Shown piece after piece: positions 3,243 to 55,238 of a stretch of 64,000 bases of DNA; the first letter of the stretch is position 1; every line of letters begins with the position of its first letter. Under the pieces are notes generated by a model, which searched no databases, was not told the DNA's origin, and saw only the letters and a program-made list of their open reading frames with translations. The translations under genes and the position numbers were made by a program. The DNA is from Candidatus Moraniibacteriota bacterium (GTDB taxonomy: Bacteria; Patescibacteriota; Minisyncoccia; Moranbacterales; UBA1568): positions 987,957 to 1,051,956 of the forward strand of contig CP064975.1 of assembly GCA_016699425.1 (NCBI GenBank). The letters run 5' to 3'.

Positions 3243-3246
3243 AATC

Positions 3247-3317
3247 GGAGTGTTGTATAGTGGTATTACGCACGCTTCGGGTGCGTGTGACCCGGGTTCG
3301 ATTCCCGGCACTCCGAC
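3247..3317 (+). tRNA. tRNA-Pro (anticodon CGG)
   Basis: Hand-folded cloverleaf. Acceptor CGGAGTG/CACTCCG with C1:G72 and A73, both bacterial tRNA-Pro identity elements. D-loop AGTGGTA. Anticodon stem CACGC/GCGTG with loop TTCGGGT (U33, CGG, G37). T-arm CCGGG-TTCGATT-CCCGG. No encoded CCA. Confidence 0.85.
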
Positions 3318-3337
3318 AAGAAATGTGACAGGGCAAG

Positions 3338-3398
3338 GGTGCGTGTGACCCGGGTTCCCTGCCTGTCGGCAGACAGGGATTCCCAGCACTCCGACAAT
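3338..3398 (+). repeat. Truncated copy of the 3' two-thirds of tRNA-Pro (anticodon loop to 3' end) with a 20-nt hairpin insertion in the T-loop
   Basis: GGGTGCGTGTGACCCGGGTTC...GATTCCCAGCACTCCGACAA repeats tRNA positions about 34-73. It is interrupted by CCTGCCTGTCGGCAGACAGG (6-bp stem CCTGTC/GACAGG, loop GGCA). One G-to-A change lies in the T-stem. Confidence 0.7.
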
Positions 3399-3545
3399 TG
3401 CTATCTAGCCCAAAAGTGAGGAGCATGTGCCGCTTATAGTCTTCACTGACACATCCATCTGTACCCGAAAAGCTGCTCCCCGCGCTTGACGAGACTGTCA
3501 CGAGAAGACGTACACCCACCCCTGAACGCTATTCTCCATTTGGCT

Positions 3546-3851
3546 ATGAAGCTCCTCATCGAACACCCATCGGACACCACCGTGACACTCTTCCGTCGTG
3601 CTGGCTATATATTCCAACGAGAAGAAGGGACCGAAACTAGCTTCATCCGACCGCTCGGAAGCTCGGGTTATCCGCGCTTCCACTGTTATGTGAAATCCAA
3701 GCCTGACTCTATAGAATGTAGTATTCACCTCGATCAGAAGCGCGAAACGTATGGCCGGACCACGCGGCACCACGGTGAGTACGAGGATGCTGGGGCGCTC
3801 GCTGATGAGATACGGCGCATTCAGCCGCTTCTAGGAGTGCGGGAGAGGTAG
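3546..3851 (+). CDS. Hypothetical small protein (about 101 aa) between tRNA-Pro and tRNA-Leu
   Basis: ORF only. No motif and no clear ribosome-binding site. Sits inside a tRNA-flanked segment. Confidence 0.3.
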   Translation: MKLLIEHPSDTTVTLFRRAGYIFQREEGTETSFIRPLGSSGYPRFHCYVKSKPDSIECSIHLDQKRETYGRTTRHHGEYEDAGALADEIRRIQPLLGVRER

Positions 3852-3924
3852 CGACAGACATTCAAGCAACGGCACTATAGGACACCATACCTGGGCGGAA
3901 GAAGTGTCTAGCAGAAATATATTT

Positions 3925-4008
3925 GCCATGGTGGCGGAATTGGTATACGCGCTAGCCTTAGGAGCTAGTGGGAGTAATCCCTTGAGAGTTCGAGTCTCTC
4001 CCATGGCA
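3925..4008 (+). tRNA. tRNA-Leu (anticodon TAG), type II with long variable arm
   Basis: Acceptor GCCATGG/CCATGGC with A73. 3-bp D-stem. Anticodon stem CTAGC/GCTAG with loop CTTAGGA. Variable arm GGGAGTAATCCC. T-arm GAGAG-TTCGAGT-CTCTC. Confidence 0.85.
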
Positions 4009-4072
4009 CAGTGAAAACGAGAGTGAGGTGGGCTAGCCTTTGACGCTGGATGTCTGGAGAACCTGTGAGTAC

Positions 4073-4093
4073 CCTGCCTATCGGCAGATAGGG
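4073..4093. repeat. Second copy of the small hairpin repeat (CCCTGCCTATCGGCAGATAGGG) related to the insert at 3359-3378
   Basis: Same 6-bp stem and GGCA loop. It differs by compensatory changes on both stem arms (G-to-A and C-to-T) that preserve the base pairing. Confidence 0.55.
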
Positions 4094-4110
4094 TGGTTAC
4101 TCTCTTGAAC

Positions 4111-4142
4111 AATAGAGACAGAAGACCCTCCGGAAGGAGGGT
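4111..4142 (-). terminator. Stem-loop terminator-like hairpin downstream of the 961-aa surface protein gene
   Basis: GAAGACCCTCC-GGAA-GGAGGGTCTTC is a perfect 11-bp stem. It lies immediately 3' of the minus-strand ORF ending at 4155. Confidence 0.5.
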
Positions 4143-4154
4143 CTTCTGTCTCCT

Positions 4155-7040
4155 TTAGCGCGACTGACGATTCCGAGATATAGCTGCTTCTGGTACATTG
4201 GGGATGACCGCAAACACGACTCCCGAAGCAAAAAGGATGAGAGCAACAGAGAAGAACACCTTCAGCGAAAAGAGTACCGATCCAGGGAGATAGCTTGCGA
4301 TGAGTGCATAGTACTTCTTCACACCCGTTTGAGTAATATTCAGTATCTCCGGCTGTTCGACTTGGGTACTGCCGCCAAAATAGCTTTCTGTCGTATCGAG
4401 TGAAGAAAGTCCCCAAATATCCTCCATCGCTTGACGAGTGAGCGTACTGGGTCGATAGACGGCGGTCAGAGAAACATTATAGACCGCTTGTCCAATCTTG
4501 TTCGCTGAGAACGCAATCGTATTCGTCGTCCCATCACCATATGGTACACCATCGACACTCCAGGAACGTTCGACTTGTGGCGGAGGAATGTTTGCGAGGA
4601 AATCAGGAGTGAAGAGTGCCCGAACCGGGACCGTACTCCCCGCCATTGTCTCCAGCGTTTCCTTGCTATATTCGGTGTAAGCGCCACCGTCCGTGTCCAG
4701 GTATTGACCAAGTGTCTTGGGCCAGACGCTGCCCATGTCATTCGATACGATACTCACTGATGGCTGGACTATCCGGAAAGTCCGAGAGATGGTCACGGTT
4801 CGTTCCGTCGAGCCGGCCGTGCTCGCCTGGTTCGCTGTGACGGTGATATTGAATGTATCGCCGACATTCCCAATCACCGGGAAGAAGTTGATGTTCCCTT
4901 GACGATCATCGAAGCAACTCGTGGCGGATACCCGCGCATTACAGATGAGCGGCTGACCATTGATGGTCCAATTGTAATTCGAGAGTCCAGCCCCCGGCAC
5001 TTCCAGCCCGATAATCTCATTCTTGATAACACGACAGAGTTTGCCATCCAAACGAGAGAGGGCTTGCTGTTCGGGCGGATCTGCCGGATTCACGATGCCC
5101 GAGCAAATCTCGTTGGCCGCATTGATCGAGACACGGGCCGGATCGCCAGCTGCCGTCACCGTATGGGCGAGGATGCGATCCTGGCTCGCATTGAACTTCA
5201 CAATGACGTCGCTCCGTCCCCGGCGAGTCGTTCCAGTCCCACTAAAATTTTCGGCAGCATCCACGCGGAAGCGCAGATAGCCGATATCGTTCAGGAGATA
5301 GTTCGTGAAAGGACGACCGTTGAACGTATCTGTTCTCTGCATATTCAAGTCGAGCTGCACCTTATTGACACCATTGCCCCGGACCTGGGACAAGAGCCGA
5401 CGACCCGGGAGGTTGTTCAGCGAACTCGTGATATTCACCCAACCAGCTGCTGGATTGGCTGTCCCGTCTGGCGAGAGCTCAACCCGCCAATCATAGTACA
5501 CCTGTTGTATTCCGCGGGCCGAGTTGTCGATGGTGGCCACGGCATTTAATTGGTCACCGTCACCCCGAGTCGTGACATCATTGAGTGGATCCTCGGGTGA
5601 AGCCGTGACTGAGAGATTAAGATTCGTTGATTGACCACCTTCAGCCGGATCGACCAGGTTCCAGCGAGCACACCAGCGCAGATCATGCGCAATAGTTGGG
5701 ATAACTACTTCATAACCAGCAATATTCCGTGTATATGACCCAGTATTGCCGTTATTCGGACAATTATTCTTCGACCAGGCCCACATGATCATATTGGATG
5801 AGTCCCGATACTTGGTCGCGTTCATCGAAGTCCCTTCGACCACCACTCCCACCTTATCGCCCGGCTGATAATTCCAAATAAAGGTGTCCCGGCCGAGCCC
5901 GACTACATTGGCCTCATCTTTATTCCCATTATCAGCTGTGTCTGGATCAGCAGGATTGGTCCGCCAGAACTGTTCTTCGGCAGCGCCGTAGGTGCCGTCC
6001 CCGGCCGTAAAACCTGGGGCCTGGGGGAATATGTGCCGACAAATTGGATTTGCATTGCTTCGGCCGACGCCGCCAGGCCGTGAACAGTACGTTAGACCGA
6101 TACTACAGAATGTCGCCGTGGCGGGATTCGAAACGCAGCATGGTGTTCCGACATTGCAGGCCGGGCTGCCAGACTGGGTACAATACGGCAGGCCCGAGAC
6201 ATAGTCATTCGCTTCGTCGAGATTGAAAGTCTCACCTTCTGCGGTCGCCGTCCCACCGGTCGCTGTTCCGCCCCCGGCACCACTCCCATCACTCGACGAG
6301 CTCGCCGTCCCACCGGTCGCACTGAGTTCCAGTATGCCCGGCGTGACATTGGCGCTCCCCACCATACAAATTGGTTGAGTGCCAGCTGGGCAGCCCCAAT
6401 CAACCTCTCCGACATCGGCATCGACGATCTCGTAATTCTCACCACTAGTATTGTCATGATAGTAGCAGTGATTCGGGACATTGACCCGGTTATCCCCTCC
6501 GAAACGGGCAAAGTAACCATCGTTATCAGTATCCACTCCATAATTCACGTTGGCCAAGTCAAGGTCATTGGAAGCGATTATCCGGTGCGCCTCGATCATG
6601 TAGTCTTCCTCGTCCGCCCAGTTGTCACCATTCAGATCGCAGCGGGCAATATTGAGGTTGCCTTCACATCCCGCCCGCATAAGGAACCACGTGAAGTAAA
6701 GATTACTCGCCTCACTCATAAAACCAGATGGAAAAGCACGGGCGGTAAGTTTTTCCCCCGGCTTCGGGTCCGAGGGTGAGAAGAAGAGTGAAACCTCCGG
6801 TGTTATTTTCTTGGCGTTAGCGACATTCATCGTTTCACCCTGCTCCTGGACGGCACCAGTGTTTACATGATAGCGTCTCTCAATATCCGCTGCCGCTTCA
6901 GAAGGGGAAGGTATCTTGATACTCGGCGATCCCCCAAAGAGCCCGGCTGAGGCAGGCAAGACAGAAACAATAAACAGCTCCAAACTCATCAAGAGACGGG
7001 CGAGCTGCAGGATCTTTTTGTGTTTTCTGAAACTCAACAT
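4155..7040 (-). CDS. Large secreted/cell-surface protein (961 aa); N-terminal signal peptide, Gly/Thr/Asn/Cys-rich ectodomain, C-terminal transmembrane anchor
   Basis: N-terminus MLSFRKHKKILQLARLLMSLELFIVSVLPASAG. Low-complexity TGGTASSSSDGSGAGGGTATGGTATAEGE stretch with multiple Cys. C-terminal hydrophobic segment followed by basic residues. Last gene of the T4SS-like operon. Confidence 0.7.
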   Translation of the reverse strand: MLSFRKHKKILQLARLLMSLELFIVSVLPASAGLFGGSPSIKIPSPSEAAADIERRYHVNTGAVQEQGETMNVANAKKITPEVSLFFSPSDPKPGEKLTARAFPSGFMSEASNLYFTWFLMRAGCEGNLNIARCDLNGDNWADEEDYMIEAHRIIASNDLDLANVNYGVDTDNDGYFARFGGDNRVNVPNHCYYHDNTSGENYEIVDADVGEVDWGCPAGTQPICMVGSANVTPGILELSATGGTASSSSDGSGAGGGTATGGTATAEGETFNLDEANDYVSGLPYCTQSGSPACNVGTPCCVSNPATATFCSIGLTYCSRPGGVGRSNANPICRHIFPQAPGFTAGDGTYGAAEEQFWRTNPADPDTADNGNKDEANVVGLGRDTFIWNYQPGDKVGVVVEGTSMNATKYRDSSNMIMWAWSKNNCPNNGNTGSYTRNIAGYEVVIPTIAHDLRWCARWNLVDPAEGGQSTNLNLSVTASPEDPLNDVTTRGDGDQLNAVATIDNSARGIQQVYYDWRVELSPDGTANPAAGWVNITSSLNNLPGRRLLSQVRGNGVNKVQLDLNMQRTDTFNGRPFTNYLLNDIGYLRFRVDAAENFSGTGTTRRGRSDVIVKFNASQDRILAHTVTAAGDPARVSINAANEICSGIVNPADPPEQQALSRLDGKLCRVIKNEIIGLEVPGAGLSNYNWTINGQPLICNARVSATSCFDDRQGNINFFPVIGNVGDTFNITVTANQASTAGSTERTVTISRTFRIVQPSVSIVSNDMGSVWPKTLGQYLDTDGGAYTEYSKETLETMAGSTVPVRALFTPDFLANIPPPQVERSWSVDGVPYGDGTTNTIAFSANKIGQAVYNVSLTAVYRPSTLTRQAMEDIWGLSSLDTTESYFGGSTQVEQPEILNITQTGVKKYYALIASYLPGSVLFSLKVFFSVALILFASGVVFAVIPNVPEAAISRNRQSR

Positions 7041-7043
7041 ATT

Positions 7044-7724
7044 TCAGCGAAGGATGAGCACCATGACATCGGTCAGAAACAGGAAAAACCACGATGCGCC
7101 ATAACTGTACCAGAGAGATCGAGACTGATAGGCGATGAGTCCGGCAAACGGAGCAAAAATAAGCGATGGGATGGTCGAGGCGTTGATGTCATCGCTGGCA
7201 TAGAACAGGAAACCGATGAGTGCCGCCTGAACAACGACCGACCAAATCCCCCACCTCCGGAGCCACAATAACATTATAAACCCTCGAAAGAATACCTCAA
7301 AGAGCAGCACGATGAATCCATTCAGGAATACCTCGTACAGAACAAAAAAGAGGAATTGCTCCTGGACTACCACCGGGAGCTGATAGTCTTGGAGAAGCGG
7401 AGTGAAATTCCACAAGACAAATAGTGCAGCTAATGCGGCAATGAGCGCCAAAACACTTCCCCCGATGCCGGCCCAGACATTCCCTTTTTGGAAGCCAAGT
7501 GCTGACAGCGGACGACCGAGCAGTACCTTACAGTACGCGAGCGGCATGATGAGAAAAATACCGATCGCTGCAATGATACTTTGAAGCATCGGACTGATAC
7601 GATCATCCCCGCCGAGAAACCACAGAACGAGTAACGAACCAGTGACGACCGTCATCGTTCCGAGGAATTCCTTGTGCCGAGCAACTACCTGTATCCATCG
7701 TTCCATAAAAACTGGAAAGCTCAA
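7044..7724 (-). CDS. CPBP-family-like polytopic membrane protein (degenerate protease motifs)
   Basis: Multi-TM ORF containing the FEVFFRGF motif (ExxxR-like). Its stop is 3 nt from the start of the next gene. Confidence 0.45.
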   Translation of the reverse strand: MSFPVFMERWIQVVARHKEFLGTMTVVTGSLLVLWFLGGDDRISPMLQSIIAAIGIFLIMPLAYCKVLLGRPLSALGFQKGNVWAGIGGSVLALIAALAALFVLWNFTPLLQDYQLPVVVQEQFLFFVLYEVFLNGFIVLLFEVFFRGFIMLLWLRRWGIWSVVVQAALIGFLFYASDDINASTIPSLIFAPFAGLIAYQSRSLWYSYGASWFFLFLTDVMVLILR

Positions 7725-7894
7725 ACCAAATCAAATTAATTGGTTACCGGATCAAATCCGGGAGAACCTGAATTTCTGCCCTCAAAAAATGACCACGGAG
7801 TCTCGGTGCTGTCGCTCATTCCGTATTAGAATGGTTCATCTTTACTTATTATACACTCTCACAGACGCGCCGATCATCTCATGCTTTTTTTCCT

Positions 7895-8800
7895 TTACGC
7901 TGCCCGGCGCATCACAGCATCGTTAGCAGCCGCACGCTGCCTTCCCCTCTCATAGAGTTTTCCTCCTTCTTTTGACATTTGTCTCCCAGCAGCACGTGCG
8001 ACCTCCTGCTCACCTAATTTTGTAGCTATCATGCCCGCTTTCCCGAGTCTGGTTACTTCTCCCACACCTGTCATATCAGCCGCCATAAACGCCGCTCCTG
8101 TCGCGCCATGCCTCACTCGATCAGTCCCAGAAAGTCTTCTACCATCAAGCCGTTTTCCCGTTACTGACTCACCGACCATCTTTGCCGATCCAACCACCGG
8201 CACCCAATCAGCACCTCTCGAAAGGCGGGTCATTCTCGGGTTTTGTGCGACGTCCCCTTGAGCAGAGAGCGTTTCCGCTTCCGTAGACGCGTCAGCCGAA
8301 GCATTTGAGGAAGCCGTCTCCTGGGCGGCTCTACTCTGAACTAACGCGCGTTGTCGCGCCACGCCACGGAGATCACCCGCCATCTTAGGAGTGGCTCGAT
8401 CGAGTGAGTCTAACACCCCTTTGGATTTATCAGCATCCTTCTTTGCTACATGGTACGCATATAGGACACACACCGTTTGGAACGGGATAAGATTTATAAA
8501 AGGGATGAAGTCGAGCAATGAAAGGAAGAAGACGACTAAACGGACCTTCCATTTCCCTCGCCCCCACATGAAGATGAATAGGTACACTGAAATGAAGAAC
8601 CCGAAGACGAGACCGATGAATGGGATGAAATCAAAGATACCATCTTTGGCAAGTGCAAAAGCCAGCGGCATAAGAAACACGGAGAGGTCTCCCTCTTTGA
8701 CCCTTCTCCGGTGCTCAAGAGCAAGGTGTGTCGCGCTCTTCAACTGCTTCCATTTGCTCTGCTGAAGCTGGTCGAGCTCGAGATCAAAATCCTCATCCAT
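7895..8800 (-). CDS. Hypothetical membrane protein (301 aa), T4SS-cluster associated
   Basis: ORF with two to three hydrophobic segments and a charged Ala/Gly/Arg-rich C-terminal tail. Lies 5 nt downstream of the virB4-like gene. Confidence 0.55.
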   Translation of the reverse strand: MDEDFDLELDQLQQSKWKQLKSATHLALEHRRRVKEGDLSVFLMPLAFALAKDGIFDFIPFIGLVFGFFISVYLFIFMWGRGKWKVRLVVFFLSLLDFIPFINLIPFQTVCVLYAYHVAKKDADKSKGVLDSLDRATPKMAGDLRGVARQRALVQSRAAQETASSNASADASTEAETLSAQGDVAQNPRMTRLSRGADWVPVVGSAKMVGESVTGKRLDGRRLSGTDRVRHGATGAAFMAADMTGVGEVTRLGKAGMIATKLGEQEVARAAGRQMSKEGGKLYERGRQRAAANDAVMRRAA

Positions 8801-8805
8801 AGAAC

Positions 8806-11142
8806 CTAAGGATTGTTGGCGTCAAATTCCCGCTTCGCCTCTTCAATTTCCAGGAGCTGGCGCGGGTCAGAAGTGATGATCTGGTCCTCGCTATATGAAG
8901 CGATAACCTTGATCGCCGCGTGCTTCGTCCCAGCGAAGAAGATTCCTTCGCCGACATTCGACTCGAGCAAGAGGAACTTCTCGTGGTCCGTCAGGTAAAA
9001 CGTCTCCGTGATGAAATCAATGGAAGCCGGCGACTGACGGAGGAGGAGCTGCATGGACGAGTTCGTGATAATCGGCTTGCCGTAGCGCGAAGACATGAAG
9101 TCAGAGATGTCCTGTGTGATCGTCGTGAGGCCCGTGTAGTACTTGCGGCAGCGCTTGGCGATACCAAAAAGGAATGAGGCCGCGTCTTCGTTTTGCATCA
9201 TGATCCACGCTTCATCGACGACAATGAGACGCTGGCGAAGCTTCGAGCGGATATCGTTCCAAATGTACTGAAGGATGATATACATGGCGATCGGCCGAAG
9301 CTCTTCCTCCAGGTCGCGGATATTGAACACCACAAGCTGATTGTTGGTGTCGATATTCGTCTGCTCATTGAGGAACCCCGAAAAAATCCCTTCCGTATAC
9401 CGCTGGAGACGTGCCGCGATCAAATCCGCCCCTTCCATATTCTTCAGGACCGCGTACAAGTCTGACATAGTCGGAAAGGAATTGGCCGTCAGTGACTCGT
9501 AATTCGAATCTTCGTGAATGTCACGAATGGCATAGGCTTCTCGGATCGCCTGATCCAGGATAGAGTCCTCTTCGGCCGACAGAGTGCCGAGCATAAGGTG
9601 AAGGAGACCAATGAGGTTGGCGATAGCGTTCCGGAACACGCCGTCCGACTCATCGTCAGCGCCCACCTTCGGCATATCAAACGGATTGAGGTGGATATCC
9701 GAATTCAGCGAAATCTTCAGGAATGCCCCGCCAACTGTCTCGCAGAGATGCTTGTACTCATTTTCAGGGTCGATGATGATGACGCTCGACTCGAACATGA
9801 GCGCCCGCAAGACTTCAAGCTTCACCGTATAACTCTTTCCAGCACCGGACTTCGCAAACACCACCATATTTGCGTTTTCCATCTTGAACCGGTCAAAGAG
9901 GATGAGCGAGTTGTTATGACGGTTGATGCCATAGAGGATTCCTTCGTTCGAAGAGAGATCGGAGGAAACAAAGGGGAAAGTCGTCGACAAAGGCTCAGTG
10001 TTCAGGTTGTTGGCGACATCCAAGGCATCATTCGCGAGCGGACGCGTCGATGCGAAACCCGCATCCATTCGGAGTACGGCCGGTTTAGTATAGACGAGCT
10101 GCGCCTCGAGCATCGCCTCGACAGACTGTTCTTTCTGTGAGAGATCCTTTTCGTCTGCTCCGTATATCATCATGTACAGTCCGAAACGGAAGAACTTCTC
10201 TGTCCCTTGCTGAAGCCGATCGCGCAGTTCTTCGATGTTCTGAAGGGCTGCCTCGAGCACGGGGTCACGGATTTTCCCTTCTTCGACTTCGATATTCATC
10301 TGCGACTGCACCTGGGTTGCTGATTTCCGGAGCTGTTTCAGGATCTCGGCCGTCTCGATCGGATGGATGAAGAGCGCCGTGTCCATCGGAAAGTCGAGAT
10401 TGATGATCGGGGAAAACCAATTGGTCGAGAGGAAACGTGGATACGCGATGACAAACAGCGCGCGTGCAACGACATCGCCGATTTGCATCGACGCCGGAGT
10501 GACCCGGATAGCCGGCGGAGCGATCAGGTCCTTGATTGTCGCCAGGCCCTTCTGGTACAACTGCTCCGTATCCAGTCCTTCATCCAGCTCCAGAATCCGT
10601 GGATTATTCTTGAAGAGTTTGCTGAAAATACCGGCTTTTTCTGACTGTGCACGCACAACACGTTCTTCGGGCGCAACATGTGACACGACTTCTTTGGCCC
10701 AGACCTCACGGTTTGCCTGTGGCTGAAGCAAGGCCTCATAGTCAGGCACCGCGACGGCCTCTCGCATCGGGGCCTCCCGGACGGGGGGGTCAGGCACGAT
10801 GTACGGTTCGAGCTCGGGTACAGCCACTGGCGGTGTGACCGGATCGGCCTCGACTATCACCAATGGTTCCACCTTCGGTCGTGGTTTCGGCGTCGGCTTT
10901 GGTTTCGGTCTTGCCTTCGGTAACGGTTTTGGTTGCGGCTCGGTAACCGTAACAGACGCTTTCGGTTGGCGGACCGGCGCGGCGACCACCTCTACTGGAG
11001 GCACTGGAGACGTCTTTACCACCGGCGCTGGCCGCGATGGCGGAACCGGAGCCTGGCCTGATCCAGGCGTCGTGATATTCATGGGATCTACCACGGATAC
11101 CTTCCTGATTGGCCGGTCAAAAATGATGAGTTCTCGTGCCAT
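8806..11142 (-). CDS. virB4: VirB4/TrbE-family type IV secretion ATPase (778 aa) with a roughly 150-aa Pro-rich N-terminal extension
   Basis: Walker A VFAKSGAGKSYT and Walker B RLIVVDEAWIMM. The middle region (AIRVTPASMQIGD...YPRFLSTNWFSPIINLDFPMDTALFIHP) is typical of Gram-positive-type VirB4 proteins. Confidence 0.85.
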   Translation of the reverse strand: MARELIIFDRPIRKVSVVDPMNITTPGSGQAPVPPSRPAPVVKTSPVPPVEVVAAPVRQPKASVTVTEPQPKPLPKARPKPKPTPKPRPKVEPLVIVEADPVTPPVAVPELEPYIVPDPPVREAPMREAVAVPDYEALLQPQANREVWAKEVVSHVAPEERVVRAQSEKAGIFSKLFKNNPRILELDEGLDTEQLYQKGLATIKDLIAPPAIRVTPASMQIGDVVARALFVIAYPRFLSTNWFSPIINLDFPMDTALFIHPIETAEILKQLRKSATQVQSQMNIEVEEGKIRDPVLEAALQNIEELRDRLQQGTEKFFRFGLYMMIYGADEKDLSQKEQSVEAMLEAQLVYTKPAVLRMDAGFASTRPLANDALDVANNLNTEPLSTTFPFVSSDLSSNEGILYGINRHNNSLILFDRFKMENANMVVFAKSGAGKSYTVKLEVLRALMFESSVIIIDPENEYKHLCETVGGAFLKISLNSDIHLNPFDMPKVGADDESDGVFRNAIANLIGLLHLMLGTLSAEEDSILDQAIREAYAIRDIHEDSNYESLTANSFPTMSDLYAVLKNMEGADLIAARLQRYTEGIFSGFLNEQTNIDTNNQLVVFNIRDLEEELRPIAMYIILQYIWNDIRSKLRQRLIVVDEAWIMMQNEDAASFLFGIAKRCRKYYTGLTTITQDISDFMSSRYGKPIITNSSMQLLLRQSPASIDFITETFYLTDHEKFLLLESNVGEGIFFAGTKHAAIKVIASYSEDQIITSDPRQLLEIEEAKREFDANNP

Positions 11143-11144
11143 AC

Positions 11145-11822
11145 CTATGACTGAAGCTCAATGGCCTCGATATTCTTCACGATCGTTGAGGCAAAAAGCG
11201 ATGGGTTATAGCTGTTGTAGAGTAGTTCGATAAGCTCCTCCGTCTCGAGAACCGCCGCCCGGACACCCATCGGAGAGAGTCCTGCCACCACGTGCTCGAC
11301 GCGCTGCATGAGCTGGGTCCGGTAGGTGTAGAAGAGCTCCGTCTTCAAGCCGACCGTCTTTTTTTGATTGAAGATATCGCCCATCTTCTGAAAAAATCCG
11401 CCCTGGCTGTTCTCGACCGGTGAAAACGGCACCACGACATAGAAGAATTTCGACATGATGTTCGATATCTCCGTCAAATTCTTGATGAAACCTTGATACT
11501 CCCGCATTTGGAAACGCAAAAGCTCATTCATTTGCTGAGCTTCTTTCCCCTTGAGGAGTTCGATATACGGATCGATATTGAAACGCCGCGATTGCACCAC
11601 GATCTGCACAGGAAAATCGAGCGAGTTCAAAAAATTCTGGTATTGGGAGATGATCGCATCTTGTTCCTCGCTTGATTTCAAATCAAAATTGATGGATGAA
11701 ACAAGAAGCACCGCTCGAAGTGCCCCGGTCTTGAGGACGAGCACACCATCGCGAATTTCTTCGACATCGACATAGCGCTGTGTGCTAGCACTCCCTGACT
11801 TTTTCTTCGAAAGAAGTTCCAT
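11145..11822 (-). CDS. VirB4 N-terminal-domain-like protein (225 aa), encoded separately from the ATPase
   Basis: DGVLVLKTGALRAVLLVSSINFDLKSSEEQDAIISQYQNFLNSLDFPVQIVVQSRR matches the conserved start of conjugative VirB4-like ATPases. TAG stop 2 nt before the ATG of 8806..11142. Confidence 0.6.
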   Translation of the reverse strand: MELLSKKKSGSASTQRYVDVEEIRDGVLVLKTGALRAVLLVSSINFDLKSSEEQDAIISQYQNFLNSLDFPVQIVVQSRRFNIDPYIELLKGKEAQQMNELLRFQMREYQGFIKNLTEISNIMSKFFYVVVPFSPVENSQGGFFQKMGDIFNQKKTVGLKTELFYTYRTQLMQRVEHVVAGLSPMGVRAAVLETEELIELLYNSYNPSLFASTIVKNIEAIELQS

Positions 11823-11831
11823 AGATCGAGA

Positions 11832-12224
11832 CTAGTGGCTATCCATGATATTGGCGAGACGACGAAGCTCTTCGGAGGTAATACGTTTTTCCTTGGGTGC
11901 CTCCACGACGCGAGCTGTTTCAACAGGTGCCTGACGGATCCGCGCCGTCGGTCGCTCCCAGACAGCGATTTTGGGACGGAACAAGAATGAAAATCCGTGG
12001 AAGAGAAACACAATGAGCGGTACCCCTTGAGGCCGATAGAAGGCCAGGGCAACAAAGAGGAGAATGAGCGGTATGCCGATGACGAAGAATCCCGTGGTAC
12101 CGATAGTGTTGTAGAGCACGAGGAGGGTGATCATCATGCCGATCATCCACAAGAGCTGCCGCCAGGTCAACGGACCAGCGATCTTGTCCTCGACATCGAT
12201 GAATTGCGGGACACTGAACATCAT
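11832..12224 (-). CDS. PrgI/VirB3-like small membrane protein (130 aa)
   Basis: N-terminus FSVPQFIDVEDKIAGPLTWRQLLWMIGMMITLL followed by two TM helices, as in PrgI-family proteins found upstream of VirB4 in Gram-positive T4SS. Confidence 0.65.
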   Translation of the reverse strand: MMFSVPQFIDVEDKIAGPLTWRQLLWMIGMMITLLVLYNTIGTTGFFVIGIPLILLFVALAFYRPQGVPLIVFLFHGFSFLFRPKIAVWERPTARIRQAPVETARVVEAPKEKRITSEELRRLANIMDSH

Positions 12225-12294
12225 AACGCTTTTGTATTCGAGGATAGCCTGCTTTCCATTTCTGCCAACATGAAAAGAAGTCTCCGCCTCTTTA

Positions 12295-12332
12295 GTATAT
12301 CACTACACTAATGCATCGGTGTAGTGATATAC
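12295..12332. promoter_or_regulatory. Perfect 14-bp inverted repeat GTATATCACTACAC-n10-GTGTAGTGATATAC upstream of the prgI-like gene
   Basis: Seen directly. The spacer TAATGCATCG contains an ATGCAT palindrome. A related half-site AGTATACCACTACA occurs at 16187-16200, upstream of the virB6-like gene. Confidence 0.45.
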
Positions 12333-12348
12333 AATAGCTGTACGAGAT

Positions 12349-13818
12349 TTATATGTCTCCGTTCCCACCATTCCTCGCACGAAGCGGACGGATAGAGTAG
12401 GGACTTTTCGAAAGCGAGGCTTTCGGTTCACGCCGGATTCCCTGAGTCGGCTGTTGCATCTGGCGGAGCGCCTCATTTACGCCTGTTGGGGCCGTATCAA
12501 CTTCACGTTCCGCGGGCAGCACATGGCCGGTGGAGAAATGCAGAGTCTCGCCAGAGACATTTTTTTCTGGCGCCGCTGATTTTCCAAAGAGGGGTTTGAA
12601 TGTCGGTGCCGGTTGAGACTTCACAGCTAACGGGACGGTCGGGGTGGTCGGTTGGATATTCGGTGCTGCCACGGCCGGATTCGCCGGCAACCCGCGAGGG
12701 CGGATAGTTCGGTTCATCGGCTGAGTCTTCACTTGAGCCAATTCCATCGATGCATCATCGGTCCGCGGGAAGATAATCGTCTCATGGGTCGTATCGATCT
12801 CCAATGGGAAATCCTCCTCGACTGATTTCAGAATGAGATTGAGCCGCGCCCGGTCGTCATTGGAGAGGCGTTTGCAATTCACGGACTGGAAGAGGAAATT
12901 CCCCCGCTGAGCGGTCTCATGGAAGCCGATACCAATTTCCTCGCGATAGCTCCGCAGCCAATTGCCCAAGGACGGCCGCACCGGTTCCATCGACGTCTTT
13001 AGTTTGATCTTCTCATTCGTCAGCAATTGCTCCGACAGATGCCGATACTCACTCATCGCCTTGAGCAGCGGTAATCGGATCGTTTTTTGGGCGGGTGCTT
13101 GTTGGCGACCAGTACCTGCAGAAACTCCCTTCTGTTGAGAGTTACTCATAGATGAATACTTTGCTCTGAACTCATTTGGGTTTACTTCTCTTACCCCTTT
13201 CTGCTCAAGTTCAGATAGTTTCTCATACACTCCAGCGACATCATAGACTGTAGTAATGGGACGTGCAAACCATTGGTCATACACGCGTAATACTTCACGA
13301 AGTACCCCTTGCTGATTCTTACTCATAGAGACGATCTCCGGAACACGGGTAAAGAACATGTTCACTGCAGTCCCTTCGCGCTCCATCGATGGGAAGTCTT
13401 TATCGAATTTCTGGACCCAGTCGCGGACCGTTCTTTGTCCAATTTTTTGTTCATTGTGTAATAGAGCATCCCGAAAAGCATTTCGATCCCCTTCCTGATT
13501 ACCATAACCCAAGTACAGAAACCGGCTCTTGATCACCTCATCGATATCCACTTCACTCGTCAACAGATCAACAAATTGTCTTTCAATGATTGCCACTGCC
13601 TGATCTACCGGAAGACTTGGGAAAGCAATGAACAAGAGAGGGTCCTTCATCTGTGTCAACATCTCCTTCGATGATGCAGGTGCCTGTCCTGCCATCACGT
13701 CCCACTGACGCCAAGCGGAATATGCCAAGTTGTCATCATGTCGGGCGCACGCCTCTGAGACCTTCGCGGACCATTGTTTGAAGTCTGTTGGCGGGGTAGT
13801 TGGTGAACTCACAGTCAT
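12349..13818 (-). CDS. Hypothetical protein (489 aa), T4SS-cluster associated
   Basis: Long ORF within the operon. No TM segment and no known motif. Pro/Thr-rich C-terminus. Confidence 0.6.
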   Translation of the reverse strand: MTVSSPTTPPTDFKQWSAKVSEACARHDDNLAYSAWRQWDVMAGQAPASSKEMLTQMKDPLLFIAFPSLPVDQAVAIIERQFVDLLTSEVDIDEVIKSRFLYLGYGNQEGDRNAFRDALLHNEQKIGQRTVRDWVQKFDKDFPSMEREGTAVNMFFTRVPEIVSMSKNQQGVLREVLRVYDQWFARPITTVYDVAGVYEKLSELEQKGVREVNPNEFRAKYSSMSNSQQKGVSAGTGRQQAPAQKTIRLPLLKAMSEYRHLSEQLLTNEKIKLKTSMEPVRPSLGNWLRSYREEIGIGFHETAQRGNFLFQSVNCKRLSNDDRARLNLILKSVEEDFPLEIDTTHETIIFPRTDDASMELAQVKTQPMNRTIRPRGLPANPAVAAPNIQPTTPTVPLAVKSQPAPTFKPLFGKSAAPEKNVSGETLHFSTGHVLPAEREVDTAPTGVNEALRQMQQPTQGIRREPKASLSKSPYSIRPLRARNGGNGDI

Positions 13819-13882
13819 AACATGGGGACTATATTAAACGTTATGTGCAAGACGGGGGGGTACAATACTGTTCATTCGTTAA

Positions 13883-16144
13883 TTATATGAGTCGTGTGGG
13901 CATCGTGTGTCCAGATGGCAGTGTCGGTTTAACAGTTTTCTCAACGTACTCTCGGAACATTGGGTTTGTGTTATACGCGGCCTTAAAGTTCCTATAGTTT
14001 CCACTCGTGGCAGTATTCACTGCCCCCTCATAGGCATCCAGGATCGCACTCTGGACTACTGCATTCGTTCGAGATGCGCTACCCACATCATTATTATTTA
14101 TTTCCATAGCAACTGCTAATCCAGACGCATGCATATCACCATATTTTCGATTGCCTGAAGCTGGGTCAACAACCTGTGTAAAGAGACCCCGGGCATGCAG
14201 GACATCCTGCCGTGTTTGCGCTTTCATTTTCTTGAAATTCCCCGCAACAGTCCCGGCATGGTCAGATGTGCCTGTCCAGGTTCCCGTTGCAACATCTGGT
14301 TCATAGAAGTCCCCAAAAGCAATATCCCCTTTCATCTTCGCATTTTCACCGAAGTTATGCATGTGTTTCATAATTGCCTGTTCGTCCACGCCCACATCCT
14401 CCAGAATTTTTTTCATGGTGTCCTTATAGCTCTCAGTGATATCGACCAATCCGGTGACCGGATCAATACTTGCCGTACCCAACTCATGCGCGAAATCCGC
14501 TGCAACGTTATCCAGACCATTTATCCGAGACAGGAGCGTACTCGCTGCCAGCACTTTTGCTGAATTACGTTCCTCATAACCCTCTTTAAGCGCTCGTCGT
14601 ACTACATTTTCATTAACCTCCCCTCCTCCCTGTTCCTTGATCTCTGCTTCATAATGAGCTTTTTGTTTATTCTGCTCCAAGAACGCATAGTTGGTTGAAT
14701 CCGCGTGTGTAAACTTATTAACAATTGGGATGCTACTAAATGCTTTATTTAATTCATCGTGCATCCGCGCCTTTGCCATATCGATAGGAAGTTGGTCCTC
14801 ATGATGCTGAGCCTCACTACGCTGCTTGAAGGCGGATTTCAACACGGTCGGGCTCAAGTACTTCACCCATTTTTTATCAGATGCAGCGAGCTTCGTCTCA
14901 ATCTTCCTCCCAGCATATTTGGCCGTCCCAGCTGCGCCCTTCCCCACCAATCTCACTGGTGCCATCGCTGCGCCCTGCACCTTCTTCCGTGCCCAATGCG
15001 CCGCCCCATAGCCCATACCGACGACAGCTGCCGAGCCGGCGATGGCGAATTTGTTGGCCAGGCCGATGGTCGCCCAGATGAGAATGATCGGGATCGTATA
15101 GAAAATCACATTGGTGATGAGTGTCGATCCACTAGCGCTGACACTGGCATTGGTCGACACCTGGTCCACTGATCGCCAGACATTGGCCGTCTGGGTCGCC
15201 TCGAGAAATTTCAGCGAGACCACGAGCATGAGCGCGGCCGCCGGACCGAAAAAAGCATAGCTCCAGAACTTACTCCACCATTCCTGTCCGTATTTGTTGA
15301 ATCCTGGCAAGAGCGACCCCGCGAAGCCGATCGGCGAAAAAACGAGGAGGAGGGTGAGTGCGATGAGCCGAACGATGAGCATGACCGAGAGCACCGCGAG
15401 CGAAATACCGAAAAGGAAGGCGAAGATGATCGCTGCAAACGTCGGGATATAATCCGTCGTCAGTGCCGCCGCCGCCGTACCCGAAAACCCGAGCAGGTTG
15501 TTCATCGCGATCACCGCCCCCTGGCCACCCCCCGCACCGATGACGTCATTTATGAAGTAGTACATCGGCACATTGGCCACATCGATGAGAAAGCGCGTGA
15601 TAGGAAAACTGAAATTGATGAGGAGCGCCGTGAGGAGGATGTTCTTGAAGATATTACGGATATTGAAGCTATCTACCTGGAAGATGGTCGCGAAGGCCGA
15701 AAAGAGCAGAATGAAAATGAAGAACAAATTGAAGAAGTCCCGGATAAATTGCCAGAGCGTATAGACGGCGGGGAAATTCAGGATGCCGTTTGGACCAGAG
15801 ACATTGGCCGGATTGACCACCCAGACGAAAAGCGCAGCGGCCGGGGAAGCAATGATGAGGATGATCGCACTGCGAATCAGATTGAGTAACCACAGTGAAA
15901 AGTCCTTCAAACATCCGGTGATATTGCCTATATTGCATCCAGTGGACACATCTCCAGTGGCTATCCCTTGGCCTTCTTTCACACCCGCGTTAGTCGCCCC
16001 ACCCACCGTCGCAGCCTCGACCGGGGTCTGGATAGTCTGATTCGCATGCACCGATGCCGCACAACCAAGAACGCCTTGGAAGACGAGCACGGAAAGGAAT
16101 AGACTCGCAAAAATTTTCTGTGTGTTTTTCTTCACCCCACGCAT
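13883..16144 (-). CDS. VirB6/TrbL-like polytopic membrane protein (about 753 aa from the internal ATG; the ORF extends to a GTG at 16195)
   Basis: Signal peptide MRGVKKNTQKIFASLFLSVLVFQGVLGCAASVHA, then six or more TM helices rich in aromatic and Gly residues, then a long soluble C-terminal domain. Position and topology match VirB6-like subunits. Confidence 0.6.
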   Translation of the reverse strand: MRGVKKNTQKIFASLFLSVLVFQGVLGCAASVHANQTIQTPVEAATVGGATNAGVKEGQGIATGDVSTGCNIGNITGCLKDFSLWLLNLIRSAIILIIASPAAALFVWVVNPANVSGPNGILNFPAVYTLWQFIRDFFNLFFIFILLFSAFATIFQVDSFNIRNIFKNILLTALLINFSFPITRFLIDVANVPMYYFINDVIGAGGGQGAVIAMNNLLGFSGTAAAALTTDYIPTFAAIIFAFLFGISLAVLSVMLIVRLIALTLLLVFSPIGFAGSLLPGFNKYGQEWWSKFWSYAFFGPAAALMLVVSLKFLEATQTANVWRSVDQVSTNASVSASGSTLITNVIFYTIPIILIWATIGLANKFAIAGSAAVVGMGYGAAHWARKKVQGAAMAPVRLVGKGAAGTAKYAGRKIETKLAASDKKWVKYLSPTVLKSAFKQRSEAQHHEDQLPIDMAKARMHDELNKAFSSIPIVNKFTHADSTNYAFLEQNKQKAHYEAEIKEQGGGEVNENVVRRALKEGYEERNSAKVLAASTLLSRINGLDNVAADFAHELGTASIDPVTGLVDITESYKDTMKKILEDVGVDEQAIMKHMHNFGENAKMKGDIAFGDFYEPDVATGTWTGTSDHAGTVAGNFKKMKAQTRQDVLHARGLFTQVVDPASGNRKYGDMHASGLAVAMEINNNDVGSASRTNAVVQSAILDAYEGAVNTATSGNYRNFKAAYNTNPMFREYVEKTVKPTLPSGHTMPTRLI

Positions 16145-16241
16145 AGGTATGCCAAGAGTATGAACAGCTACCGAGATACAAAAATAGTATACCACTACAA
16201 AGGAACTAGTAACTAGTAGTTAGTCGCTGCACCCTCATTTT

Positions 16242-17549
16242 CTAATAAATGTATCCCTTGATCACGCGGCTCGAGCGCGACAATTGCCGCACGCTTTTCT
16301 TCGCCCAGCCGGTGTAGTTCATCTCGGACACGGTGATGGTATCACCGCTCACCTTTTCCACGACCGCGACATGGCCATAGTAGCGGTTTTCAGTCGTCAC
16401 GACGATCGAGCCGACGGTCGGATTCTTGCCGGTCTTGTAGCCATAGGCCCGAGCATTGAAGAGCCAGGTGCCCGCATTGCCGCCCCAGGGGACATAGCGT
16501 TTCTGCGCGACGAACCAGGTGCAGTACCCATACGGGAAGCGATGTCCCTGGCCAATTTTCCCTTCTTTGGGTCGTGAGAAATTCGGGGTGATGTCGGTCG
16601 CTGCCCCCACGCCGGACTGGGTCGCGTATTCCCGGCGAGCCAACCCGGTCGAGGTCGGCGCGGTCAAAGTTGCCTCCTTCACCCCGTCCGGGATGACGAT
16701 TTCCTCACCGGAAGTCAGTTCGCCATTGGCGGGCAAGCCATTGTAGGCGATAATACGGCTCCGGTCCGCTTTGTACTTGGTCGCGATCGTGTCGATCGTG
16801 TCGCCTTGTTTCACCAGATAGTTGAACCCCGCCACTGGCAAGATGAAGATCTGATCGCCGGGCTTGATCGCATCGACATTGTCCAGATCGTTCGCCCAGA
16901 GGATGGTATTGACCGTCACCCCGTTGGCCGAGGCAATGCCCGATACCGTGTCACCCGCCGCCACGGTATAGATCTTTACGCCCCCTTCTTCCTCTGGGTC
17001 CCGTGTGCTGTTCGCACCGATCGCGCCTGCGAGAAACATTTGGTTTTCCGGCGAGAGATAGGCTTCATCGAGTACATTCGTCTCTGACTTGGCCGCGACA
17101 TCGACCGCCAGCGGGGGTGCCGCGAGGGAGACGAGCGAGAGGTTATGCTGTTTGGATTCTTGCGCCGCGCGCCGCGGGATGAGGCGACTTTCGCGAGGCA
17201 GATCAATCCCGAGTGACGTCATAAGACGATCGAGCCGGCCCGCTTCTTGGCCGTAATTGGTCGCCGAAACGAGCATGGCCGAGGAAACGACGATAGAAAA
17301 AGCAGCATATTTACGGAAAAGCGCCACTGGAACATAGCCGGACCTTTCCTTGAACCAAATCAAGAGTTTGGTCTGCCACTGATGGAAAATGGTATTCCAA
17401 TGCGAGAAATCAGCCCAAGCACGCGCTTTTTTCCAGACTAGTCTGACGAAAGATGTAAGGTTCGAGTAGATACGCTCGCCCTTTCTGTCGGGAATATCCC
17501 CTAGCGACGCTGGCCGATAAGCGGGCGCCACATCCGGGATTTCCCCCAA
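16242..17549 (-). CDS. Membrane-anchored peptidoglycan hydrolase with two LysM domains and a C-terminal CHAP domain (functional VirB1 analogue)
   Basis: LysM repeats (YTVAAGDTVSGIASANGVTVNTILWAN; YLVKQGDTIDTIATKYKADRSRIIAYN). CHAP motifs YGYCTWFV and GHVAVVEKV. First gene of the T4SS operon. Confidence 0.8.
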   Translation of the reverse strand: MGEIPDVAPAYRPASLGDIPDRKGERIYSNLTSFVRLVWKKARAWADFSHWNTIFHQWQTKLLIWFKERSGYVPVALFRKYAAFSIVVSSAMLVSATNYGQEAGRLDRLMTSLGIDLPRESRLIPRRAAQESKQHNLSLVSLAAPPLAVDVAAKSETNVLDEAYLSPENQMFLAGAIGANSTRDPEEEGGVKIYTVAAGDTVSGIASANGVTVNTILWANDLDNVDAIKPGDQIFILPVAGFNYLVKQGDTIDTIATKYKADRSRIIAYNGLPANGELTSGEEIVIPDGVKEATLTAPTSTGLARREYATQSGVGAATDITPNFSRPKEGKIGQGHRFPYGYCTWFVAQKRYVPWGGNAGTWLFNARAYGYKTGKNPTVGSIVVTTENRYYGHVAVVEKVSGDTITVSEMNYTGWAKKSVRQLSRSSRVIKGYIY

Positions 17550-17659
17550 GAGTTACGCCTCGTAGAATACTCTGAAACCCTCCCCTGGTCAATTGATTTT
17601 CGGGTGAATATTGTATCTTTTGCTTCAATTGAGCCTTTTTCCTGTCAGGCTCCCTAAGT

Positions 17660-18691
17660 ATGACCCCGTTCTCGCGGGCCTTCCCATGGTACAATTTTCA
17701 TGTCGCCTTATATCATACGCTTGTGCCCCCATTTGAGAACCCCAAGACCGAAATTGAGCGGCTCGCCAAGGAATTCTGTGAACACCTCGAGATCGAGATG
17801 AATCGCTCCCGGCGGACCCTCGAGAGCTATGCCCACACTCTTTCCACCTTCTTCGCGTGGGGCGCGATTGCGACACCCGCGGACCTGACGCTCGAGAAAA
17901 TCCGAGCCTATCGCCTCTACCTCAATCGGAAACAGACACGGCGCGGCACCACGCTCAAGCGAAGCACCCAAGCCTACCACGCGATTGTTCTACGCACCTT
18001 CCTGAAGCATCTGGCAAAAAACGATATTCCCACCCTCGCGGCTGAAAAGATTGAGGTTGGCCGGGTCCCGGAACGTCAGGTCGACTTCCTCGAGTACGAC
18101 GAGGTGGAGCGGCTTTTGGCAGCCCCCACGGGCGACGGTATTCGGGTACGGCGGGATCGTGCCCTCCTCGAGCTCCTCTTTTCCGCTGGTCTCCGCGTCT
18201 CTGAATTGACGGGACTCGATCGGGACCAGGTCAATCTCGCCAAGGAGGAATTCAGTGTCCGTGGCAAAGGATCGAAACTCCGCATTGTCTTCCTCTCGCC
18301 CCGAGCGATAACGGCTATTGCTGACTATCTCGACCACCGAAGCGACATCGATCCTGCGCTCTTTGTCTCACATCCGAAAAAAGGACTCGTGAATAAAAAA
18401 AATGCGACACGCGAGACGCTCCGCCTCACGCCCCGCACCGTCGAACGACTGGTGAAGCACTACGCGAAAAAAGCCGGCATCGTGAAAGACGTCCATCCGC
18501 ATACCCTCCGTCACAGCTTCGCCACCGACCTCCTCCGGAACGGGGCCGATATCCGAAGCGTCCAGGCGATGCTCGGCCACGCCTCCATCACCACGACACA
18601 GATCTACACCCACGTCACCAACGAACGGCTGAAGGAAGTTCACCAATCCTTCCATGGGAAACGAAAGCCGAAGATACTAGATAAGCGATAG
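17660..18691 (+). CDS. Tyrosine recombinase/integrase (XerC/XerD family)
   Basis: C-terminal catalytic region LRHSFATDLLRNGADIRSVQAMLGHASITTTQIYTHV carries the R-H-R-Y signature, and an N-terminal core-binding domain is present. Transcribed divergently from the T4SS operon. Confidence 0.85.
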   Translation: MTPFSRAFPWYNFHVALYHTLVPPFENPKTEIERLAKEFCEHLEIEMNRSRRTLESYAHTLSTFFAWGAIATPADLTLEKIRAYRLYLNRKQTRRGTTLKRSTQAYHAIVLRTFLKHLAKNDIPTLAAEKIEVGRVPERQVDFLEYDEVERLLAAPTGDGIRVRRDRALLELLFSAGLRVSELTGLDRDQVNLAKEEFSVRGKGSKLRIVFLSPRAITAIADYLDHRSDIDPALFVSHPKKGLVNKKNATRETLRLTPRTVERLVKHYAKKAGIVKDVHPHTLRHSFATDLLRNGADIRSVQAMLGHASITTTQIYTHVTNERLKEVHQSFHGKRKPKILDKR

Positions 18692-18828
18692 CCGATAAGG
18701 GATAAGCGATGTGAATCAAACGTAACCCTTCGAATTCCCCTGTTTCCACTCTCACACCTGGTATCAACTATCCTGTGTCAGGTATCTCCCACTCTACATC
18801 TTGCGCAATGGAGCGACGCCGAGCATCA

Positions 18829-18866
18829 TTTTAAAAAAAACGCCGCAAGATATGCATCCTGCGGCT
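18829..18866 (-). terminator. Rho-independent terminator for the minus-strand methyltransferase operon
   Basis: On the minus strand, GCCGCAGGATGCATATCTTGCGGCG is followed by TTTTTTTT (the plus-strand A-run at 18833-18840). Confidence 0.6.
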
Positions 18867-18888
18867 ACAACTACAGTTGACCGATCCG

Positions 18889-50806: not shown

Positions 50807-50880
50807 GGACAATTAGCTCAGTTGGTTAGAGCGTCACATTGACATTGTGAAGGTCACTGGTTCGAATCCAGTATTGTCCA
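50807..50880 (+). tRNA. tRNA-Val (anticodon GAC)
   Basis: Acceptor GGACAAT/ATTGTCC with A73. D-arm GCTC-AGTTGGTTA-GAGC. Anticodon stem TCACA/TGTGA with loop TTGACAT. T-arm ACTGG-TTCGAAT-CCAGT. Confidence 0.85.
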
Positions 50881-50885
50881 CTAAA

Positions 50886-55236: not shown

Positions 55237-55238
55237 CT

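Follow-up and report, generated by a model that had tools for sequence, protein, structure and literature searches.

We report the analysis of a block of nine genes (positions 4155-17549, minus strand) in a stretch of 64,000 nucleotides from Candidatus Moraniibacteriota bacterium (assembly GCA_016699425.1, contig CP064975.1, positions 987,957 to 1,051,956; hereafter the window, whose own numbering is used throughout). We conclude that this block is very probably a chromosomal type IV secretion system (T4SS) of the Patescibacteria, or candidate phyla radiation (CPR), derived from monoderm conjugation machinery of the mating-pair-formation (MPF) FATA class and now maintained as a vertically inherited core locus. 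An earlier note, made by a model from the sequence alone, had recognized a secretion-like apparatus and had read its layout as that of an integrative element. Our analysis corrects this tempting misreading, illustrating that a tRNA gene and a tyrosine recombinase are not enough to make an island, and documents the Moranbacteria version of the system, in which no pilin genes were found and which features a disulfide-rich surface protein with multiple immunoglobulin (Ig)-like domains, a degenerate CPBP-like protein, a protein with a swappable tail and a 489-aa soluble protein. These lineage-specific proteins constitute concrete candidates for host-facing parts or substrates of the machine. A system of this kind has already been described, the Moranbacteria locus is no new kind, and what is modestly new about it is confined to the lineage-specific accessory proteins.

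Core components of the secretion system

The central component of the block is a VirB4 ATPase of the CD1110 or MPF-FATA type (8806..11142, minus strand, as are all nine genes). It matches the CD1110 family model NF045971 with 357.2 bits, above the cut-off of 325, and PF19044 with 107 bits, and its sequence shows the Walker A motif KSGAGKS and the Walker B motif LIVVDEAW. Among approximately 8,000 scored homologues the closest, at 63-99% identity, belong to Candidatus Moranbacteria/Moraniibacteriota and other Patescibacteria metagenome-assembled genomes (MAGs), whereas identity to any plasmid VirB4 in PLSDB is at most 35.5% and a scan of IMG/VR returned no relative. Codons 1-170 of the gene encode an N-terminal extension (about 170 aa) rich in Pro and Lys (PKPLPKARPKPKPTPKPRPK), a trait of its sub-clade; most Moranbacteria VirB4 proteins (~620 aa) are without it, and their alignment to the window protein starts only at residue ~190.

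Directly upstream of virB4 lie the genes for a TrsD-like and a PrgI/VirB3-like protein. The TrsD-like protein (11145..11822, 225 aa) is a separately encoded homologue of VirB4's N-terminal domain, aligning to positions 4-118 of NF045971 and 96-233 of NF045975 and covering the N-terminal ~120 residues of the VirB4 models; it also matches the TrsD/TraD model NF041427 (E=2.1e-7) and retains 58-96% identity across relatives. The PrgI/VirB3-like protein (11832..12224), a small membrane protein with two transmembrane (TM) helices formed by two hydrophobic segments (24-62), matches PF12666 with 39.4 bits (cut-off 27) and TcpE with 22 bits. At the upstream end of the row, a LysM-CHAP cell-wall hydrolase (16242..17549) provides a VirB1 analogue. 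Its N-terminal hydrophobic anchor is followed by a pair of LysM domains and, at the C-terminus, by a CHAP amidase/peptidase domain (PF01476, 73 bits over two stretches; PF05257, 68 bits, in the Pfam scan), both families scoring above their Pfam cut-offs, and in nearly all relatives showing both genes it adjoins a Xer recombinase gene in divergent orientation.

Between hydrolase and virB4 the row also contains a gene for an extended polytopic membrane protein of 770 aa (13883..16195), which hydropathy divides into approximately eight hydrophobic segments in residues 28-377 and a hydrophilic C-terminal region of ~370 aa. We regard this protein as a remote VirB6-like homologue. The window copy matches NF046089 (CD3337/EF1877 mobilome membrane protein) with 19.7 bits (E=3e-4), and 12 of 36 orthologues do so as well (best E=1.3e-8), with all matches below the model's cut-off of 120 bits; two of the 36 match pLS20_p028 and one TraJ. 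A PDB profile search with the protein returned no match.

Several components of classical conjugation systems were looked for in vain. Pfam and NCBIfam scans of the nine ORFs (open reading frames) returned no match to a relaxase, VirD4 or VirB9/10/11. In the remainder of the window, the large ORFs, scanned with Pfam, likewise revealed no relaxase, no VirD4/TcpA coupling ATPase and no VirB9/10/11; those ORFs encode housekeeping proteins (GyrA, PNPase, FtsH, IspG, ribosomal protein S1, ComM-like, KsgA, PcrA and UbiA). No VirB2-like pilin was found near the locus by topology search and Pfam, the sole small ORF with two TM helices being that of the PrgI-like protein.

The coordinates and gene content that the earlier note had assigned to the block hold under ORF calls, tRNA scans and Pfam/NCBIfam scans. 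Family scans agree with its LysM-CHAP, PrgI/VirB3-like, VirB4 N-domain and VirB4 assignments, and its VirB6-like call is supported on the weaker basis of the NF046089 matches among orthologues. The same scans reproduce the lack of relaxase, VirD4 and VirB9/10/11 that it had described. Its overall picture of a monoderm or CPR-style apparatus is consistent with a set comprising a VirB1 analogue, a VirB6-like protein, PrgI/VirB3, a split VirB4 N-domain and VirB4, with no outer-membrane core, and its remark that this is not classical conjugation is probably correct, given that the locus holds no relaxase or coupling protein.

Agreement with the T4SS of Patescibacteria

The CPR/Patescibacteria T4SS is already recognized as widespread, chromosomal and relaxase-less. 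VirB4 has been reported in 2,417 of 3,035 Patescibacteria genomes, and that of 2,407 of the 3,035 belongs to a monophyletic clade lying within MPF-FATA (Quiñonero-Coronel et al. 2025, PMC12102498). According to the same study, patescibacterial virB4 genes have a chromosomal context that often includes KsgA, with TrsD, PrgI/VirB3, VirB6 and, in Paceibacteria, VirB1-like hydrolases nearby; relaxases occur in only 103 of the 3,035 genomes, and the 5,713 VirD4-like type IV coupling protein (T4CP) homologues lie mostly far from virB4 (PMC12102498). Pilins were located near virB4 in 1,135 of ~2,400 assemblies (PMC12102498), so the absence of a pilin gene is compatible with membership of the Patescibacteria T4SS. 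Transposon sequencing has established that epibiotic growth requires the Saccharibacteria T4SS, which lacks recognizable coupling or relaxase proteins (Wang et al. 2023, PMC10633639). Reviews describe the role of the CPR T4SS as 'completely unknown', with effector delivery and the import of nutrients or nucleic acids as the leading ideas (PMC11665869, PMC12857230).

Conservation of the locus and its surroundings

Synteny was analyzed in 80 species genomes anchored on VirB4, using tblastn with all window proteins. In ~50 Moranbacteria species with VirB4 proteins 63-84% identical to that of the window, the same order recurs: UbiA-PcrA-Xer-CHAP-VirB6-like-U489-PrgI-TrsD-VirB4-(2-TM)-CPBP-like-S961-tRNA-Leu(TAG)-small ORF-tRNA-Pro(CGG)-CCA enzyme, where U489 and S961 denote the 489-aa soluble protein and the 961-aa surface protein. 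The flanking genes are housekeeping genes (PcrA, UbiA and KsgA on one side, the CCA-adding enzyme on the other), and their recurrence in ~50 species means that genes outside the supposed ends of the element are as conserved in position as those inside. A second analysis, anchored on Xer alone and therefore presupposing no T4SS, covered 40 metagenome loci, many of them short. All loci with a Xer of at least 62% identity and sequence on the relevant side carry CHAP/T4SS genes, and no empty site (PcrA-Xer joined directly to tRNA-Leu/CCA) was found among the 40.

In a sister group (loci L058-L080), PrgI-TrsD-VirB4-2TM lies upstream of KsgA-PcrA-Xer and CHAP-VirB6-like downstream, so that the recombinase sits amid the T4SS genes and not at their edge. 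No homologues of the CPBP-like protein, U489 or S961 were detected in these loci within the fetched 10-kb flanks. A tRNA-Ser(CGA) gene is located ~5 kb upstream in this group.

Protein divergence conforms to the same pattern of vertical inheritance. For seven of the eight T4SS proteins tested, and for Xer, identities track those of PcrA and the CCA enzyme with Spearman rho values of 0.8-0.9, VirB4 being the exception (rho 0.46-0.53). Base composition is likewise that of the host: GC content in the block is 0.48-0.555, against 0.49-0.58 in most of the window. The earlier note had made this observation and had added that any acquisition must be old, which also fits.

The recombinase itself (17660..18691, plus strand) matches Phage_integrase with 147 bits and the XerD, XerC and XerA models with 241, 236 and 228.5 bits (XerA cut-off 220), in agreement with the XerC/D-family assignment made previously, and keeps the R-K-H-R-H-Y catalytic residues. 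In relatives it is always next to PcrA where sequence extends on that side, and in more distant CPR genomes its orthologues of 50-56% identity are found in contexts without a T4SS. Because of this conserved synteny and the T4SS-free contexts of distant orthologues, the recombinase is, as judged from sequence context, the chromosome's own Xer and not an island integrase; it is a neighbor of the T4SS and not one of its components.

At the opposite end lie tRNA-Pro(CGG) (3246-3317, plus strand) and tRNA-Leu(TAG) (3925-4009, plus strand), both identified with ARAGORN and Rfam, and between them a small plus-strand ORF of 121 aa (3486-3851). The position of this ORF is kept in 34 loci, with identities of 48-98%; it has no Pfam match and is probably a real small gene, co-located with the gene for the CCA-adding enzyme and the two tRNA genes. 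The tRNA-Pro gene, the small ORF and the tRNA-Leu gene are conserved chromosomal neighbors and not att sites. The search for att direct repeats that the note had proposed found none linking the tRNA-Pro 3' end to the Xer side: with up to 3 mismatches allowed, the 3' 30-mer of tRNA-Pro matches nowhere else in the window, no words of at least 13 nt are common to 3246-4160 and 17400-19300 (a single shared 12-mer is at chance level), and a repeat search across 3000-19500 revealed nothing connecting the two ends of the block. The integrative-element layout is hence contradicted by synteny, by the missing att repeats, by the lack of an empty site and by the contexts in which Xer is found.

The tRNA-Pro flank also displays small repeats. 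A 41-nt copy of the gene's own 3' half lies at 3337-3397, 20 nt downstream of the tRNA, interrupted in the T-loop by a 21-nt palindrome (CCTGCCTGTCGGCAGACAGGG) of which a second copy lies 3' of tRNA-Leu, at 4073-4093; this palindrome occurs in none of the 120 loci. Re-duplications of the tRNA-Pro 3' end, located 67-102 nt downstream and with other hairpins in the spacer, occur in five other Moranbacteria species (loci L027, L033, L035, L045 and L053), one of which (L053) carries two tandem copies. Recurrent recombination at tRNA-Pro may have left these copies as scars, or they may represent a small structured element.

Lineage-specific proteins

The last gene of the row encodes the 961-aa Cys-rich surface protein S961 (4155..7040). 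The AlphaFold2 model (predicted local distance difference test score, pLDDT, 79.8) has a hydrophobic signal or anchor helix at the N-terminus, several Ig-like beta-sandwiches in a row and, at the C-terminus, a helical hairpin as membrane anchor. The anchor helices and the 18 Cys residues, ~16 of them invariant, agree with the anchored surface protein described in the earlier note. Foldseek matches S961 to S-layer, Hoc, SiiE, intimin and cadherin structures (E=1e-7 to 1e-4); these are generic Ig-like arrays, and no specific adhesin family can therefore be named. A Laminin_G_3 insertion is present in some homologues. S961 is 100% identical to the NCBI entry 'hypothetical protein IPJ68_05215' of Candidatus Moraniibacteriota bacterium, and its nearest relatives all come from Moranbacteria/Patescibacteria MAGs.

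The adjacent gene (7044..7724) encodes a CPBP/Rce1-like polytopic membrane protein of 226 aa with approximately seven hydrophobic segments. Its assignment, already proposed from the sequence, is supported through orthologues, 19 of 33 of which match PF02517 (best E=2.8e-7), and not through the window copy, which has no Pfam match. Proteases of the CPBP/Rce1 family (PF02517) present a first motif EExxxR and two His-containing motifs (FxxxH and HxxxN/D). In the family studied here YEVFFRG is invariant, no alignment column holds a conserved His, and H17 is the single His of the window protein. Because no histidine is conserved, the protein is probably not a protease: it appears to lack the catalytic histidines.

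Directly downstream of virB4 lies a gene for a membrane protein of 301 aa with two TM helices (7895..8800). Of 57 loci, 56 have an ORF in this slot, with a length between 106 and 1047 aa, and its product combines a conserved TM module (KD..D / NxxP) with a hypervariable C-terminal tail of 0 to ~900 aa; examples of whole-protein length are 953 aa (L005), 1047 aa (L013) and 597 aa (L042). A hidden Markov model (HMM) built from the other sequence type of the slot protein matches the window protein with 33.8 bits and, in 13 distant loci, the product of the gene that follows virB4, with E-values of 1e-6 to 1e-26. No consistent Pfam family emerged for the protein, and no TrbC/T4SS_pilin match was found in its family; the Pfam hints are weak, comprising DUF4112 (E=0.017) and the pre-toxin domain PT-TG (E=0.27 in the window protein, E=0.003 in the L022 orthologue), with the PT-TG matches in two orthologues both below the Pfam cut-off. 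The tails of L005, L013 and L042 gave no reliable match in Pfam and PDB sequence searches. Those of L013 and L042 have a common C-terminal domain, with motifs GGRVL and VVEQPEV. A match of dPPR10 to a tail was discarded as an effect of repeat composition, since no single stretch passes on its own.

U489 (12349..13818), a soluble protein of 489 aa, comprises a helical domain (~10-230), a conserved alpha/beta core (~245-355) and a disordered Pro-rich tail that holds two conserved short motifs, FSTGHVLPAE and SPYSIRP. No fold match was obtained for it, and its family spans ~800 clusters at 50% identity.

A conserved TM module joined to tails of unrelated sequence, from nothing to ~900 aa, together with the PT-TG hints in two orthologues, raises a speculative and rather unlikely scenario: that the Moranbacteria T4SS swapped its pilin module for a lineage-specific host-contact module, and that the VirB4-adjacent protein is a polymorphic effector coupled to the T4SS and delivered or presented alongside S961 and a catalytically dead CPBP-like partner. 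Were it true, this protein would be the first candidate substrate for the essential CPR T4SS. A role of the CPBP-like protein as the immunity partner of such a toxin was considered and is unlikely, because the protein is strongly conserved whatever the neighboring tail.

Working model and alternatives

Gene content, homology, conserved chromosomal synteny and the lack of island hallmarks are observations of this analysis; the assembly, the host-contact role and the substrate of the machine we infer as follows, by homology with monoderm T4SSs. The membrane-anchored LysM-CHAP hydrolase would open the peptidoglycan locally, and a membrane translocon would consist of the PrgI/VirB3-like and extended VirB6-like proteins together with the conserved protein with two TM helices. 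VirB4 and the separately encoded TrsD-like homologue of its N-domain would dock on this translocon, providing ATP energy for assembly and transport. Membrane-anchored S961 might then constitute the extracellular, host-facing part, replacing the VirB2-like pilins of Saccharibacteria. The machine would most likely move proteins or other macromolecules across the host-cell contact zone in support of an epibiotic lifestyle and not of conjugation, non-conjugative transport being favored because the locus has no relaxase or coupling protein.

A number of points weigh against the proposed identity and model. Membership of VirB4 in the Patescibacteria clade rests on similarity levels, not on a tree. 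The VirB6-like assignment is a remote one, with matches below curated cut-offs and none to Pfam TrbL/VirB6 among the window protein and its orthologues, and a VirB8-like (NTF2-fold) component was not found in the locus. The extracellular part is a guess, since no VirB2-like pilin was found and pilins are essential in Saccharibacteria. A relaxase or coupling protein could lie elsewhere in the 1.2-Mb genome, of which the scans covered 64 kb, Patescibacteria having many distant T4CP homologues (PMC12102498).

The machine might also work inwards, taking up host DNA, RNA or nucleotides, as in Helicobacter ComB or archaeal Ced, to feed an organism unable to make nucleotides. We deem this possible, if doubtful, and it is a sub-hypothesis of the explanation favored here (the same machine with another direction or substrate) and not a rival identity. 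Import has been proposed for the Saccharibacteria T4SS on the grounds that comEC is dispensable while the T4SS is essential (PMC11665869), and a 2026 preprint connects a monophyletic VirB4 with the transfer of macromolecules in a CPR parasite that feeds on host RNA (10.64898/2026.06.21.733656). The window VirB4 does match CedB (E=1.2e-13), but at 50.6 bits against a cut-off of 700 this weak match reflects only common VirB4/HerA ancestry; moreover, the ComB-specific VirB7-10 and CedA/A1/A2 were not seen in Pfam/NCBIfam scans, and the locus holds no indication of the direction of transport.

A functional conjugation system, with a coupling protein and a relaxase encoded elsewhere on the chromosome and transferring chromosomal or element DNA, appears improbable. 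VirB4, PrgI, the VirB6-like protein, TrsD and CHAP do form the core of monoderm mating-pair-formation systems, the 5,713 VirD4-like homologues of Patescibacteria lie mostly at a distance from virB4 (PMC12102498), and the stretch examined is 64 kb of the genome. Yet none of the ORFs scanned in the window encodes a relaxase or T4CP, only 103 of 3,035 Patescibacteria genomes contain relaxases (PMC12102498), and in Southlakia the distant T4CP homologue is non-essential whereas the T4SS is essential (PMC12102498, citing PMC10633639). The strict vertical conservation of the locus in tiny genomes argues instead for a housekeeping role in the lifestyle of the organism.

The notion of a ~15 kb integrative element that inserted beside tRNA-Pro/tRNA-Leu through the adjacent tyrosine recombinase, carrying its own secretion machine, is hardly tenable. 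In its favor are the tRNA pair and the tyrosine recombinase at opposite ends, the ultimate origin of the T4SS genes in monoderm conjugative elements (PMC12102498) and the 41-nt half-copy, on account of which tRNA-Pro may once have been a recombination target. Against it, no repeat joins the two ends (the half-copy, 20 nt from the tRNA, brackets nothing), the whole neighborhood is syntenic in ~50 species down to its outer housekeeping genes, no Xer-anchored locus presents an empty site, GC content is the host's, the T4SS proteins co-diverge with housekeeping proteins, Xer orthologues of distant CPR do without a T4SS and KsgA-PcrA-Xer sits between two T4SS sub-clusters in the sister group.

Gene row and other features of the window

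The nine co-directional ORFs of 4155-17549 are tightly packed, with four junctions of 2-9 nt, two of 46-64 nt and two longer gaps, one of 124 nt (12224-12349) and one of 170 nt (7724-7895). The statement that every gene is on the minus strand holds for this interval and fails in the tRNA interval, with its plus-strand ORF at 3486-3851. A single operon for the nine genes is putative; promoter and terminator scans, run as a test of this arrangement, gave counts equal to those in shuffled sequence and are thus uninformative on operon structure. A candidate terminator hairpin, consisting of a perfect 17-bp inverted repeat (4115..4152) with 100% complementary arms and a loop of 4 nt, starts 3 nt past the stop codon of the last gene; the terminator scan picked it on the plus strand only, and its function as a terminator is putative. 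A second inverted repeat, with 24-nt arms that are 83% complementary and zero spacer, lies at 12290-12337 inside the 124-nt gap between U489 and PrgI, and could serve the gene row as an operator or internal regulatory site.

Outside the block, GC content falls to 0.36-0.40 at 50.9-54.8 kb, against ~0.52 elsewhere, with the dip to 0.36 lying at 52-55 kb, between tRNA-Val (50807-50881) and tRNA-Ala/tRNA-Arg (54861-55237). The region holds three minus-strand ORFs, of 358 aa (no Pfam match), 326 aa (bacterial TSP3 repeats) and 445 aa (no Pfam match). As a candidate for horizontal acquisition it is much stronger than the T4SS block.

Comparison with known systems

[quoted passage not shown] With Helicobacter ComB and the archaeal Ced/Ted systems it has in common a VirB4-family ATPase without a relaxase and a proposed role in nucleic-acid import; in contrast, scores on the CedB and CedD models fall far short of the cut-offs, and ComB VirB7-10 and CedA were not detected.

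The likeness to monoderm MPF-FATA T4SSs (pCF10 Prg/Pcf, pIP501 Tra, pGO1 Trs, CTn2/CD1110 and ICEBs1 Con) is closer, encompassing a VirB4 that reaches the CD1110 cut-off, a PrgI-type VirB3, a TrsD-type protein, a polytopic protein remotely similar to the CD3337/EF1877 type, a CHAP hydrolase and the lack of an outer-membrane core. The differences reside in the Moranbacteria locus being without detected relaxase, VirD4/TcpA or VirB8-like (NTF2) protein, in its hydrolase, which combines LysM and CHAP with no lytic transglycosylase domain, and in its location, which is not on a plasmid or ICE, its VirB4 being at most 35.5% identical to plasmid homologues.

The T4SS described in Patescibacteria (PMC12102498), including that of Southlakia epibionticum (SEML1_0006-0019, PMC10633639), is likewise chromosomal, combines an MPF-FATA VirB4 with TrsD-like, PrgI/VirB3-like and VirB6-like partners (the last of these a remote assignment in the Moranbacteria locus), has a peptidoglycan hydrolase adjoining the cluster (in Paceibacteria) and KsgA nearby, and has no relaxase or coupling protein in the locus. 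The Moranbacteria locus departs from it in not being near dnaA/dnaN within the window. Southlakia relies on essential pilins, and no VirB2-like pilin gene or array was found in the Moranbacteria locus, which has instead S961, the CPBP-like protein, the VirB4-adjacent protein with its variable tail and U489.

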